Shown here: piece by piece, positions 42,001 through 48,000 of the stretch | Numbering within the stretch: position 1 is the first letter of the stretch | Layout: every line of letters begins with the position of its first letter | DNA from: Patescibacteria group bacterium | GTDB taxonomy: Bacteria > Patescibacteriota > Patescibacteriia > UBA2591 > JAQUPP01 | Direction of reading: 5' to 3' | Assembly (NCBI GenBank): GCA_041649955.1 | Contig: JBAZMD010000002.1 | Coordinates: forward strand, 7,709 to 71,708 | Length of the DNA: 64,000 nucleotides | Made by a program: the position numbers

Positions 42001-45000
42001 TAAAACCAAAAGATTGTAAACTTTTTCAACTCTGTCCCATTGTTTGGTTCTGTCCATGGCAAAAAATCTGCCTGAAATACTGGCGATATTAACTTTCAAA
42101 TGATGATTGTTGTGATTTACTTTTTGTTCAAATCTTTCCACCAGGCGAATAGCCGCGTGCTGGGAAGAATCACGGCCATCGGTAAAAAGATGTAAAAATA
42201 CTTCTTCAACTTTCTGTTCTTCCAAAAGTTTTAACATTGCCAACCAATGTTCAGGTGATGAATGAGCGCTGTTTTCTTCAGTCACCAAACCCATTAAATG
42301 AACTTTTGATTTGTATTTTTTAAAATGAGAAATTCCTTCCAAAAAAGCGGGGTTTTTAAAAAATGTTTCATCTTTAATGCCCTCTGAAATATAAACCGCG
42401 TCATCTTTAACAGCTCGTCCGGCACCCAAATTCAAATGACCGGCCTCTGAATTTCCGGGCTGATCTTTAGGCAAGCCAACGCATTCTCCAAAAGCGCAAA
42501 CTTCGGTATAGGGATATTTCTCTTTATAATGATTAAAATTGGGCGTATTTGCCAAAGTAACAGCATTACCTTTGCTCTCCGGCGCTACTCCCCAACCGTC
42601 CAGAATAATCAGAATTACTGGATTAATTTTTTTCGTAGATTTTACCATATAACTATTATTTTTATTAAAAATAAAGTTTTAAAATTTGGTATTATTTAGA
42701 AATTAGGTCAATTAGAAATTAGGCATTTTTACCAAGCTCTTCCTCAATCTCCATTAATCGATTATATTTTGCCACTCGTTCTCCTCTGTTTGGCGCGCCT
42801 GCTTTGATAAAATCAGCGCCGACCGCCACGGCCAAATCAGAAATAAAATCATCGCTTGTTTCGCCGGAACGATGAGAAATAACAATTTTATAATTATTTG
42901 CCTGGGCCAATTTAATGCAATTTATCGTTTCAGTCAAAGTACCGATTTGATTTGGTTTGATTAAAATAGAATTTGCCGCTCTTTCTTCAATGCCCTTTTT
43001 TAAATGATCAATATTGGTGGTGAATAAATCATCGCCGACAATCATAATTTTTTGCAAACGCGCATGAAGATCTCTCCAGCCGGCCCAGTCGTCTTCTGAT
43101 AAACCGTCTTCAATGGAAATAATCGGATATTTTTCAACCCAAGTTTGATATAAGGCAGTCAAATCTTGAGATGATAATTTTTTATTTTCAAAAACATATT
43201 TTTTTTCGTTAACATCATAAAATTCTGAAGCCGCCACGTCTAAGGCAAAAACTATATCTTGACCTATTTTAAATCCCGCCTCTTGAGCCGCGGACATCAA
43301 AACTTTCAGCACTTCTTCATTATTTTTAAAGCTTGGCGCGAAGCCGCCCTCATCTCCCACGGCTACTGAAAAACCGTAAGTGCTCTTAATAATATTTTTA
43401 AGTATTTGAAAAAATTCCGCGCTTAATCTTATTCTTTCTTTGAATAATCGGTCGGGTTGATTTTTAAAATTTTCAGCCAAAGGCACGATCATAAATTCTT
43501 GAATATCTAATTTATTGTCAGCATGCCTTCCTCCATTAATCACATTAAGCATCGGAATAGGAAGTTTGTAAGTTTGTAAGTTTGTAAGCTGGTAAGTCTC
43601 GCAAATATATTTATATAAAGGAATATTTTGCGATTTTGCGCCAACTCGAGCACAAGCCAAAGAAACTCCCAAAATGGCATTAGCGCCTAATTTGTTTTTA
43701 TTCGGCGTTCCATCCAAATCAATCATTAATTTATCAATTTCTTGAGGATTTGGTTCGTGTCCGATTAAAGCCGGAGCAATTATTTTTTCCACATTTTCAC
43801 AAGCATTTAATACACCCTTGCCGCCATAACGGTTTAAACTATTATCTCTTAATTCAAGCGCTTCGTGTATGCCGGTTGAGGCTCCGGAAGGAATTGCGGC
43901 TTTGGATTCCATCCCATTTTCCAAAATAACTTTAACCTCAAGAGTCGGATTGCCTCTTGAATCTAAAATTTCGCGAGCAAAAATATTTTTAATTTTCATG
44001 GTTTCTATTATTAGTTATTAGTTAATTAATGGCTTAATGCCGGGCAATATTTTTCCTTCCAAAAATTCCAACATTGCTCCCCCGCCGGTGGAAACAAACA
44101 CATGCGCTGACCCATACTGACTTAACACTGACTTACGCTGACGATTTCCGTGTAAGTCTGTGTTTTTGTCCGTGTTAGTCTGTGCTTGCCGCAGAGCGGC
44201 GATTGTTTCTCCGCCGCCAATAATAATTTTGGCCTTGCGATTATTTAAAATAGTTTTAGCTATTTTTTTTGTTCCTTGATTATAAAATTGTTCTTCAAAA
44301 AGACCCATTGGACCGTTCCAAACAATTGTTTTGGCGGTTTTAAGATATTTTTTAAATAATTCAACGGTTTTAGGACCAATATCAAAAATTCTAAAATCGC
44401 CGCCAAATTTATGATCTATTTTTTTTGTTTCTTTAATTAAAGATTTATTATCCAATTTTATTTTAGAATCTTGAGGTAAAATAATTTTTCCATTTTTAGC
44501 CAATTTTTTCGCCACTTCAATCATCCTTGGTTCATAAAATGAGGCTCCGATATTAACTCCTTTTATTTTCAAAAAAATATTGGCCAAGGCTCCGCCGATT
44601 AAAATCTGATCAGCTTTTTTAGCTAAATTTTTTATGGTTTTTATTTTGGTGGAAATTTTAACTCCGCCCATTAAAACTATAAATGGATGAATCGGTTTGG
44701 CTAGAATTTGACTTAGATTTTCAACTTCTTTAGCCAGACGAAAACCGGCATAGGCCGGCAAATAACGGGTAATTGCCGAAACCGAAGCGTGCGCCCGGTG
44801 GCAAACAGAAAAAGCCTCATTAACGTATAAATCGGCCAGCTCGGCTAATTGCTTGGCAAATTTTAAATCATTTTTTTCTTCCCCGGCGTAAAAACGGAGA
44901 TTTTCCAATAAAATAATTTCTCCCGGTTTCATTACCTTAATCGCTTTTTTGACTTTTTCGCCAACGCAATCATCAATAAATTTAACATGAAGCATGGAAC

Positions 45001-48000
45001 CTAGAACATGTAACCTATTAATATATTTTGCTACCGGTTTTAAACTATATTTATTTTTGAATTCTCCGACGCTTCGGTCGGAGCCCCGACCTATTGGCGT
45101 CGGGGTTGAATTTTGTATTTGTTTCAGATTTTTAAATGGATCCCCTATGTGACTAATTAAAATAACAATGGCTTTTTTTTGAATTAAATATTTAACAGTT
45201 TCCATGCTGGCCTGAATGCGCGCGTCATTAATAACCCGTCCGTTTTTTATCGGACAATTAAAATCAACTCTTACCAGTACCCTTTTTCCTTTTAAATTTT
45301 TAATTTCTTTAATTGTTTTTAACTTCATAATTTTAATATTATTATAACATAAAAACCAATCATCTACAAGCTTAAAATGTAAAGAAGGGACGAAAATTTT
45401 TCCGTCCCTTCTCTTGTTGGCAATTTTAATTTTTTAACGGCCAATACTTTATTGTTAGTTCAAACACTTTCTCTATTCTTTCTTTCAAATAATCGTGAGA
45501 AAATATTCCATCTTTAGCGGAATAAATAAGAGCACCCACAATAATATGCACCGGTTCACTGGTTAATCCTATTCTCATCCATCTTGTACCATCTATTTTA
45601 AAAACAGGAAGATCGAAAAGTTCGTGCAATTTCTTTTTTAATTGATCTGTCTCTCCTCCCAAAAGGCCACATTGCAGTTCCACGCCTATTACTGCCTTTT
45701 CTCCAACAGTCGCAGTTCTGAAAATACTCATAAAAGGGATCTCCAAAGTTTTTAAACAAACAATAGCGGTAATAACTCCTCCCGGCTGTAAAGTGTGAGA
45801 AATCTCCAATTCTTCTAAAATTTCTTCAAGTCTTTTTAATACTTCGTCTAACTTAATCTTGTCATTTTTCATTCTTCCTCCTTTTAGCTTAAATAGCTAT
45901 CTATAAGAATAGCTATTTTTTATTTTTTGTCAATGCTTTCCTGTTCCAACAATTGCCTAACCTGCTGAACCGCTTGCGGGTTTTTGCTTTCCATTTCATT
46001 GAAAATTTTCTCAGCTGTGGCTTGATCGCCGCCCTTAGCGTAAATCAAAGCGCAACCCAATTGGGAAGTTAAATTGTCAGGTTGCAGGCGAACAGCCCTG
46101 CCGCAAAAATCAAAAGCATTTCCAAAATCTTCAATTTCGGCATAAGCTCGGGCAATATTAAAATCAATACCTTCTTTATAATAACCTAGCTCTCTGGCTT
46201 TATTTATTGCGTCGGTGGCTTCTTTATTTTTACCCCAAACTAAATAAGCTTGCGCTAAATTCCAATATGATTCCCCTATTTTGTCATCAAAATTAACCGC
46301 TTCTTGAATAGTGCTGACGGCCTTTTCATATTCTCCCTTATAAAGATAAGTTCTGCCTAATTCAAAATAAACTTGCTGGCGTTTTGGCGAAAGTTCTGTC
46401 GCCTTTTTTAAAACTTCTTCCGCTTTATCAAGATACGCTTTATTATATTTTGAACCCAAATTATACAACTGGCCTAAATATAAATAATTTCTCACATCGC
46501 GAGGATGTTCTTGAATGCTTTTTTCAAACTCTTTAATGACAAAATCCTTGCCTTGCTGCAAAACAGCCGGATCAAGATTTGACTGACCCGGGAATTCAAC
46601 AATAGTTTTAGCCAGTTGCGTCCTGATTTCGGGATTTATAAAAATCGAGTTGGCTAAAGATTTTTTATACCAATCAATGCCTGCTTTTAAATCAACTCTA
46701 GAAGCGGAAATTCCAATAACCGCCGCCTTACTCTGAACAAAAGGCTCAAGATTAAATTTATAAATTGACCATGGCAAAAAAATAATAATCAAAAAAATCA
46801 AAATTGGAAGCGGAAATACATTAACTTGTAACTTATTTAATTGTTGTCCGTGTTTAGTTCCGCGTGAGTCCGCGTTTAGTTCGCGTAAGTCTGTGTCAAG
46901 TTCGCGTGAGTCCTTGTTCGTTGTTATAAAATAAGTTAGAGCCAGACCAAAATAAAAAATAATCAAAGGAGCGGGTGTATCAAAAACAGTTAGATTCTGG
47001 ATAAAATAAGCCAAAAACATGCAAGCGAATAATGCACCGCAAATTCTATATTTATTCGCAGCATTCTCCCTGCGTTTCCGTAATAGCAGCCAAAAAACCG
47101 TCCCAAAAACCGCTAAATAAGCCACTGTACCGACACTGCCGGTTAAAGTCAATAAATCTATAACTTGATTGTGCGAACGATCAAACCAAGTATTTTCCTG
47201 ACCTAAACCTAAATAATGAGGACTATAATACTTGTTAAAAATTATATTATAATTCTCCCAGCCCCAGCCTAAAATCGGTTTTTCTTTAAAGCCCTGCCAG
47301 CCGGCTTGCCAAACAATTGTTCGCTCGCTCGCGCTGCCGGTCAAATAAACAAGCCTCATAATAAAAACCGGCGCCTTATAAATCCATGGTTTTTCTTTTT
47401 GAGTTTGAAGAAAAAATATTCCGCTGATCGCAACCAATACCAATAAAATAAAAATGGAAATAAAAATTAATTTCAACTTTTTATTTCGCAGGTTTAAAAT
47501 TAAATAACCCAAAAATAATATAAATGATAATCCAAAAGCAAGCATTACTCCGCGTGAAGCGGCAAAAAGAATAATAGCTAAATTAAAAAAAACAAGAAAA
47601 ACAGCCAAAATTCGCCAAAAATATTTTTTCTCGGAGAACAACAAAAATCCGGATAAAAAAATATGGAGCATGGCGTAAACCGCCAAAAAAATCGGATTGC
47701 CGAGTGTTGCTGTCATTTGAGGATTATTTTCTTTCAATAAGAATTTTAATCCGAATTTTTGGCCCATACCGTATAATCCAATTAAAAAAGAACAAATCAA
47801 ACTTGTCCAAATTAATTTTCGCCAATCCTGCCATTTTTTAAAACAACTGGTTAAAATTAAAAACCATAAATAAAAATGAATCAAAGTTAAAATACCGGTC
47901 ATTCTTTCTTGGGTTGACCAAAAAGAGCGCGAAATATCAATGCCGGTCAGCATTGTTAAAATCAAAACGCCCATAAATGCCGTTAAACTGAAAATTAAAG

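Follow-up and report, generated by a model that had tools for sequence, protein, structure and literature searches.

The gene for phosphoglycerate kinase (pgk) in an ultra-small Patescibacteria group bacterium carries two inserts which belong to different families of dispersed repeats and leave the reading frame intact. The inserts are likely to be translated, tolerated and probably selfish elements lodged in a working gene, similar in kind to repetitive extragenic palindromes (REPs) and Rickettsia palindromic elements (RPEs). The gene was analysed within 64,000 nucleotides of contig JBAZMD010000002.1 (positions 7,709 to 71,708, assembly GCA_041649955.1), a stretch of 34.9% G+C hereafter called the window. 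Insert 1 (about 44105-44185, minus strand) is an imperfect palindrome encoding AQTNTDKNTDLHGNRQRKSVLSQYGSAH at about amino acids 381-409; the core of insert 2 (45064..45105, minus strand) is a double hairpin encoding TPTPIGRGSDRSVG. A first-pass annotation of the window had described them as two independent repeat classes, and both indeed belong to dispersed families.

Inserts in two loops of phosphoglycerate kinase

The pgk coding sequence (44018..45328 in the ORF list, minus strand) is an intact open reading frame (ORF) of 436 amino acids, unbroken by stops or frameshifts, as the annotation had maintained. The Pfam PGK family (PF00162) is matched by residues 9-426 over profile positions 4-379 of 379 (E=8.6e-127), with a score of 423.7 bits and a cut-off of 27. 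An identical protein (P0001) is on record from a Patescibacteria metagenome-assembled genome (MAG), and the identical gene is present on two recorded contigs, one of 114 kb and one, from ENA, of 66 kb. As each insert also recurs in assemblies of other genomes and samples, assembly error is unlikely. The protein was aligned with its 119 best homologues, nearly all from Patescibacteria, and every column invariant among them is conserved in the window PGK. The AlphaFold model obtained from the same alignment has a mean predicted local distance difference test score (pLDDT) of 90.1 and a predicted template modelling score of 0.88. It has the two-domain PGK fold, the best PDB matches retrieved by Foldseek being 1vpe and 1php (E about 1e-43). 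The pLDDT falls below 50 only at residues 74-85, in insert 2, and 389-393, in insert 1.

The product is about 40 residues longer than in relatives, and the excess over the typical length, noticed in the first-pass annotation, is borne out by two loops. The loop after SHxGxP measures 30 residues, against a median of 8 in the 119 closest PGKs; the loop between GGGET and STGGGA measures 37, against a median of 16. Similarly, the alignment to Thermotoga maritima PGK (1vpe) splits at residues 65-86, and about 21 residues remain unmatched before VSTGGGA. In the sequence insert 2 directly follows SHxGxP, the motif binding 3-phosphoglycerate (3-PG), and insert 1 stands ahead of STGGGA; translation of the ORF places its peptide between AALRQ and VFVSTGGGA, where the annotation had located it. 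Both loops vary in length across the 119 PGKs, and in other lineages of Patescibacteria they hold different repeat-like peptides (e.g. SADPASRDADKRRLKA and RINADTTRGLTRSKSA). Neither insert is present in most of the 119 PGKs, which rules out that they are ordinary loops found throughout the phylum. On the predicted structure, they would be disordered extensions of two loops, presumably at the surface, whose length is naturally variable. The 3-PG-binding motif itself reads SHIGDP (45137-45151, residues 60-64), the usual form being SHLGRP. Arg is replaced by Asp in the window PGK and in its three closest relatives, and R, N, K, S or E are found at this position among other Patescibacteria PGKs.

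Insert 2 and the double-hairpin family

Insert 2 is made of two exact inverted repeats, CTCCGAC-GCTTCG-GTCGGAG (45064-45083) and CCCCGAC-CTATTGGC-GTCGGGG (45084-45105), which follow one another on the mRNA strand as CCCCGAC-GCCAATAG-GTCGGGG and CTCCGAC-CGAAGC-GTCGGAG. The hairpin pair and its peptide match exactly those first annotated, and 0.00-0.01 matches are expected in shuffled sequence. Folded as RNA, the pair reaches -26.7 kcal/mol (z = -5.35). The window contains 15 perfect GC-rich hairpins with 7-bp stems, shuffled sequence 0-2.

The segment inserted at this site exceeds the hairpins, and includes an A-rich leader (45106..45133, minus strand; mRNA AAAAATCTGAAACAAATACAAAATTCAA), the remnant of a tract of AAATCCG heptamers shortened in the window. 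The pgk gene of a related locus, L001, and the tsaD gene of L140, an unrelated Sungbacteria-like contig, have the same arrangement of AAATCCG tract, AAACAAAT(A/T)CAAAATTCAA, double hairpin and AATTC. Four heptamers are found in the L001 gene (10200-10245) and one degenerate unit in the window (45120-45133), a difference of 21 nt by which the frame is kept. Similar tracts (AAAATCA) adjoin the double hairpins of L145, L178 and L231. The nearest tsaD relatives keep the leader peptide (N.KSQI.N.KQI.NS), and exactly the 15-16 residues encoded by the hairpins are missing; the hairpin pair is thus a discrete unit that entered an A-rich tract. Close relatives also lack at least three other low-complexity inserts of the L140 tsaD gene (9948-11453), e.g. 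VNSKSEYRNSKSRFHRGSSTESGQIQN and ISKSQFSNKFQILNSKFQ, and TsaD length ranges from 373 to 473 residues among close homologues.

The window contains one copy only of the double hairpin, and the first mention of a family was consequently a guess, which metagenomes turned out to justify. The pattern used for the scan, CCCCGAC-N6-10-GTCGGGGCTCCGAC, demanded a complete first hairpin, and of the second the 5' stem alone. At least 120 loci from several dozen samples, many of them groundwater, were retrieved, corresponding to at least 118 distinct copies after removal of duplicates. The 3' stem GTCGG(A/G)G, which lies outside the search pattern, is found in 107 of the 118 copies listed. The commonest form is CCCCGAC-GCTTCG-GTCGGGG followed by CTCCGAC-CGAAGC-GTCGGAG; the second loop (CGAAGC) is the reverse complement of the first (GCTTCG), and the second hairpin is nearly the reverse complement of the first. 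Consensus flanks are TCA(A/G) on the upstream side and (T/C)(T/A)G on the downstream side. Far from being a local curiosity, insert 2 represents a very abundant element.

Among the matches listed, 34 of the 104 assessable copies lie well inside ORFs of at least 150 amino acids. Genic copies are read in five different frames and in both orientations, and encode unrelated peptides; TPTPKGRGSDRSVGE recurs in the commonest genic frame, and five of the six frames can be read through. Ten hosts were confirmed by Pfam, namely PurL, DNA polymerase I (PolA), ADP-forming acetyl-CoA synthetase, a class I tRNA synthetase, GatA, TsaD, SMC, UvrC, PheS and YchF, and in several of them a single domain match spans the double hairpin. 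The length of the element is a multiple of three in 24/33 genic and 35/74 non-genic copies (p=0.02). One weak candidate for a frame-breaking intragenic copy was found among about 70 non-genic ones. At L160 (~2317, minus strand), open frames of 140 and 127 codons abut the double hairpin in different frames; the locus could be a disrupted gene, a pair of overlapping genes or a chance arrangement.

Intergenic copies reside, among the matches listed, between tandem (20), convergent (9) or divergent (4) genes, and are closer to the 3' end of the upstream gene (median distance 33-54 nt). Copies with identical loops in L161, L163, L173, L179, L205, L210, L223, L234, L235, L238 and L239 form a subgroup in which the element is intergenic, intermingled with ATTCGTAT(T/C)CAT modules and other small GC-rich palindromes, and present in up to three copies per contig. 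These arrays resemble the repeat mosaics known as bacterial interspersed mosaic elements (BIMEs). No long direct repeats were found in L239, which has three double hairpins sitting among other small modules. Direct repeats of at least 6 nt flank 21% of the copies, against 4% in a permuted control, a figure which one repeat-mosaic subgroup inflates and which covers repeats of variable geometry. Two thirds of the copies fall beyond long ORFs, and lengths that preserve the frame are commoner among genic copies; the double hairpin behaves as would a REP-like element subjected to random insertion and subsequent selection.

The 7-bp stem of one pgk hairpin occurs also in a GC-rich intergenic element of about 120-150 nt located at 3985-4135, between grpE (4143..4625) and dnaK (2088..3947), as CTCCGAC-GAAT-GTCGGAG (4045-4062). 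On the minus strand the element folds at -53.9 kcal/mol (z=-4.76), the fold being closed by A7/U7 runs, and no Rfam family matches it even at E<=1. It could be a mosaic of repeats, or else a regulatory RNA belonging to the heat-shock operon.

Insert 1, its family and the relatives of pgk

The family of insert 1 (family 1) was delineated by an nhmmer profile built from three window copies, which sets the boundaries of the pgk copy at 44105-44184 (E=8.6e-23), slightly wider than the 44112-44185 of the first-pass annotation. Family 1 consists of imperfect palindromes about 80 nt long, made up of 10-11-nt units the number of which varies from copy to copy, with a super-period of 21 nt (7 codons). 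On the mRNA strand a full copy features ACACRGAC units, spaced 10-11 nt, in the left arm, and GTCAGYGT units in the right arm. As RNA, insert 1 folds into one long imperfect hairpin (-27.8 kcal/mol, z=-3.13).

Five family-1 loci, and no others, were identified in the window by BLAST, Tandem Repeats Finder and nhmmer, all intragenic and in frame. Two are located in murC, at 5904..5984 (minus strand, about amino acids 340-369, E=1.4e-25, fold z=-5.48) and 6456..6534 (minus strand, about amino acids 159-185, E=6.8e-24, fold z=-3.41), and the alignment to a solved MurC (9ir5) is broken exactly at both inserts (340-367 and 160-183). The copy in secA (38108..38150, minus strand, found by BLAST and nhmmer) encodes AAQTNTDETRTDTEK. 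The fifth is a tandem array of family-1-type units with a 21-nt period in the gene for a Wzy_C/TPR membrane protein (wzy; 46844..46918, minus strand, Tandem Repeats Finder score 95), at a site where orthologues have other sequence. The secA and wzy copies contain left-arm-type units only, and are half elements which do not fold as long hairpins; long hairpins were found for the pgk and the two murC copies only (z = -3.1, -5.5 and -3.4). All full-length copies share one reading register and encode related peptides, e.g. TNTD, LHG and (Q/C)KSVLSQ. The shared register follows from stop codons filling the other frames, as only one frame of six is stop-free in the pgk copy and in one murC copy, and two of six in the other murC copy.

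Family 1 extends to related genomes. The secA copy is common to the window and the related locus L003, and is absent from secA of L001 and of a further relative, L004; these two loci lack the secA, pgk and wzy copies altogether. L003 has in turn a private family-1 insertion of 111 nt at another wzy site (7890-7978), encoding TSRHGLTRTNTRTYTDKHTDSHGQGQVRIYTDRDTDD. Window, L001 and L004 have nothing inserted there, codons on either side differ too, and no obvious target-site duplication was seen at this insertion. A profile of three insert-1 peptides gave five weak matches in 1.84 billion proteins, and one of them, P0124, led to a copy in gatA of the MAG to which L004 belongs, set in the same register (nhmmer E = 3e-23). 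No match was obtained by a word-index protein search with the concatenated insert-1 peptides, and a scan of genome contigs for three ACACRGAC units retrieved mostly Thr-Asp repeat proteins from unrelated phyla, only L025 looking related. Identical stretches of at least 20 nt are shared by unlinked genes, as GTAAGTCAGTGTTAAGTCAG by murC, pgk and the gatA gene of another genome. Altogether three related genomes yielded ten copies (murC twice, secA, pgk, wzy at two sites, gatA), all in frame, which occupy six genes and nine insertion sites. They are clean insertions when compared with solved MurC and with orthologous SecA and Wzy. So far, family 1 has been seen only among these related Patescibacteria.

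The three nearest pgk genes share 75-85% protein identity with the window gene and reside at syntenic loci. The two inserts coexist in the window pgk; L001 and L002 have insert 2 and not insert 1, L003 has insert 1 and not insert 2, and both are absent from L004 and L005. In the pgk genes of the latter two, site 1 is occupied instead by a small palindrome, and some 20 residues past site 2 lies a different double hairpin. In L004 (10001-11188) these are a perfect 16-nt palindrome, TCCGCCAATTGGCGGA, and the hairpins TCCGCTCG-GCTTTG-CGAGCGGA and TCCGCT...AGCGGA; several families of double hairpins therefore exist.

The inserts are far more alike than the genes hosting them. Window and L003 differ at 2/87 positions within insert 1 and at 158/1095 elsewhere (p=5e-4), window and L001 at 3/90 within the insert 2 segment and at 191/1128 elsewhere (p=2e-4); the pgk genes of carriers thus differ by 14-17% outside the inserts, which are 4-6 times more conserved. 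Around insert 2 near-identity runs over some 50 codons of ordinary coding sequence, a stretch which is only 46-67% identical to the insert-less allele. From these comparisons, the simplest reading is that the window pgk may be a mosaic, in which an N-terminal allele in common with the L001 lineage is joined to a C-terminal allele in common with the L003 lineage. Given the assortment of inserts among relatives, and their near-identity within an otherwise divergent gene, homologous recombination among relatives that co-occur is the probable source of the combination. The contigs identical to the window (L246 and L247; k141_149838 and k141_142931) and the L003 contig (k141_1536599) all come from ENA assembly ERZ27247363, so that the window genome and a relative sharing its repeats do co-occur. 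The annotated colonisation of one gene by two repeats accordingly holds as to the intact frame; two insertion events in this lineage are not needed, recombination being probable.

In the window pgk belongs to a glycolytic gene cluster with enolase and two paralogous genes for cofactor-independent phosphoglycerate mutase. The latter are adjacent (39373-40953 and 41071-42648, encoding 526 and 525 residues), and the pair is kept in 3/3 syntenic relatives. An AT-rich segment of 15 residues in PGK, NKSLIKETKKIDHKF (44420-44464, residues 289-303), is absent from the three nearest relatives L001, L003 and L004 and kept in more distant PGKs; the difference in length is a deletion in the relatives, not an insertion in the window.

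Origin of the inserts and known repeats

If the inserts are REP/RPE-like passengers, both would be transcribed and translated along with pgk. Among family-1 copies only those landing in the stop-free frame of a tolerant loop would survive, and intragenic double hairpins would persist whenever the frame is kept, as five of their six frames allow. The elements would most likely be selfish or neutral, rather than adaptations of PGK. A number of observations weigh against this picture. We infer translation of the inserts from sequence, along with their neutrality and the history of recombination, and PGK activity is assumed for an enzyme in whose clade the canonical 3-PG-binding Arg is replaced by Asp. 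The conservation of the inserts could reflect selection on hairpin or peptide, and hence function. No transposase turned up, though no systematic search for transposases or other mobilising functions was made. Evidence for target-site duplications is equivocal, and in pgk 7+42 nt do not make a multiple of three. Finally, all ten family-1 copies are intragenic, whereas random insertion coupled to selection should leave many intergenic copies; none was found in about 79 kb of this genome and about 45 kb of two relatives, a small sample. Something besides insertion and selection may bias where family 1 arises or persists.

It is unlikely that the inserts are functional additions, in which the peptide, or the hairpin in mRNA or DNA, is kept by selection. 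Possible roles would be surfaces for the interaction of episymbiont enzymes, signals for mRNA stability or pausing, or protein-binding sites as proposed for REPs and BIMEs. The strong conservation of the inserts between carriers fits with such roles, as do the exclusively intragenic location and the single register of family 1, the recurrence of TPTPKGRGSDRSVGE, and the position of intergenic double hairpins on the 3' side of genes, the place at which REPs are believed to affect transcripts (PMC3733652). Yet one insert or both are missing from the closest relatives, the host genes have unrelated functions, and the double hairpin is read into unrelated peptides in five frames and both orientations. 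Moreover, the inserts are modelled as disordered, stop codons account for the one-frame rule of family 1, and the conserved tract at insert 2 reaches ordinary coding sequence, as a recombination tract would. Distinctly less probable is that the inserts arose where they stand, gene by gene, as look-alikes generated by a single mutational process (replication slippage or template switching, started from short seeds in the low-complexity DNA that encodes the loops), with no mobile element at work. The tandem 10-11-nt units of family 1, with their 21-nt super-period, variable number and reduction to one arm in secA and wzy, are suggestive of slippage, and so is the 21-nt difference between the heptamer tracts of the window and L001. 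The same two PGK loops hold many different small repeats in other lineages, and no clean target-site duplication was found. Slippage does not easily account for identities of at least 20 nt across unlinked genes (GTAAGTCAGTGTTAAGTCAG), supported by profile E-values of 1e-22 to 1e-25, nor for two 7-bp stems kept across dozens of samples in over 100 unrelated contexts, and in tsaD the double hairpin is a discrete insertion of 15-16 residues.

It is highly improbable that the inserts are missing from the mature product, be it by RNA excision, by ribosome bypass on the model of the byp elements of Magnusiomyces mitochondria, or because pgk is a decaying pseudogene or an artefact of assembly. Stable hairpins in a coding region could stall ribosomes, and at L160 long open frames abut the double hairpin in different frames. 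On the other hand, all intragenic copies of both families are in frame and stop-free, which would be needless were they excised or bypassed, and one frame-breaking candidate emerged from about 70 non-genic copies. No intron or other RNA family of Rfam matches, the identical gene stands on two contigs and the inserts recur in assemblies of other genomes and samples, and pgk combines an intact ORF and conserved catalytic residues with a glycolytic setting.

Interpreted as REP/RPE-like elements, the inserts may be compared with known repeats, of which Rickettsia palindromic elements and intragenic REP dimers come nearest in behaviour. Rickettsia palindromic elements (Ogata et al. 2000, 2002, as summarised in PMC10969869 and PMC3733652) are likewise dispersed palindromic repeats of a small AT-rich genome, found in frame in unrelated and often essential genes, where they add peptide segments thought to be compatible with the fold, and several families exist per genome. 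Family 1 occurs in dispersed in-frame copies in unrelated genes, and the double hairpin in at least ten Pfam-verified housekeeping genes; in PGK the inserts are the only low-pLDDT stretches, and lie in loops variable in length among the 119 homologues. The host however is a member of Patescibacteria, the elements are shorter (RPE-1 measures about 100-150 bp, family 1 about 80 nt and the double hairpin 42 nt), and family 1 is built of 10-11-nt tandem sub-units. The likeness is one of behaviour, and no RPE membership is claimed.

Intragenic GTAG- and CGTC-tagged REPs and REP dimers have been described (Di Nocera et al. 2013, PMC3733652). REPs are palindromic units of 20-40 bp, commonly arranged as inverted dimers (PMC3733652), and the adjacent hairpins of 20-22 nt described here are inverted, as in a head-to-head dimer. 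REPs and double hairpins are found mostly downstream of ORFs, in tandem and convergent contexts (PMC3733652), with a minority of intragenic dimers encoding about 15-30 residues and some copies in mosaics of small repeats. Differences are nonetheless marked. Stems in the double hairpin are 7 bp and G/C-rich (CCCCGAC, CTCCGAC), those of CGTC families 8-9 bp with A/T in the first two positions; loops span 6-10 and 5-25 nt, compared with 4-5 nt in REPs; unpaired tags and CCA tails are lacking, and the string CGTC is formed only across the loop/stem boundary. Since stem length, stem composition, loop length and tag all depart from the definition, the double hairpin is not filed under the CGTC- or GTAG-tagged REPs. 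GTAG REPs go with a RAYT (Y1/HUH) transposase, CGTC REPs are without one (PMC3733652); no RAYT gene turned up here, no search being aimed at RAYT.

Mitochondrial double-hairpin elements, GC clusters and repetitive hairpin elements (PMC2800124) offer a likeness of form, in that two adjacent GC-rich hairpins are scattered in a compact AT-rich genome. They are organellar and eukaryotic, and the analogy is one of form only, a common origin being unsupported. Double-hairpin elements of the Allomyces type are mostly intergenic, and some reside inside rRNA and protein genes. Miniature inverted-repeat transposable elements (PMC10969869) are also small, structured, multi-copy and non-autonomous in appearance, and can form in-frame fusions with host ORFs; here no terminal inverted repeats beyond the hairpins, no consistent target-site duplication and no parent insertion sequence were found. 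Neither family has copies on viral contigs, hence there is no sign of a phage vector. Neither the window nor 8 loci bearing the elements matched Rfam at gathering score, and around pgk only chance-level matches were obtained at E<=10; a self-splicing intron or known structured RNA was rejected, as no Rfam family matches, and an intein was rejected as well, as the inserts are 15-27 residues long and the ORF is continuous. Searches of the literature and for DNA strings retrieved no description of such elements in Patescibacteria, which, coverage being incomplete, is absence of evidence only.

A bolder scenario is tentative, and as a whole unlikely. Patescibacteria would harbour undescribed hairpin repeats, compatible with translation, which are a routine ornament of surface loops in essential enzymes and are spread by recombination between co-occurring relatives; family 1 would be obligately intragenic, and the double hairpin would be moved by a hairpin-specific enzyme targeting TCAA in A-rich heptamer tracts. 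The all-intragenic distribution of family 1 comes from a sample too small to establish a rule. Should it hold, spread or survival of the family may depend on being within coding sequence.

The genomes of Patescibacteria are among the smallest and most streamlined in bacteria, and this one tolerates repeats in core genes for glycolysis, cell-wall synthesis, secretion and translation. Abundance and conserved stems make the double-hairpin family a tractable target in the search for a mobilising enzyme or a role at the RNA level. If general, the phenomenon would account in part for the variable length of proteins of the candidate phyla radiation (CPR) and for their odd low-complexity segments, which hamper annotation, alignment and structure prediction. 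The repeats would also serve as natural markers of recombination between co-occurring lineages, and the protein-coding palindromes of Rickettsia would be extended to a second, unrelated group of bacteria with reduced genomes.

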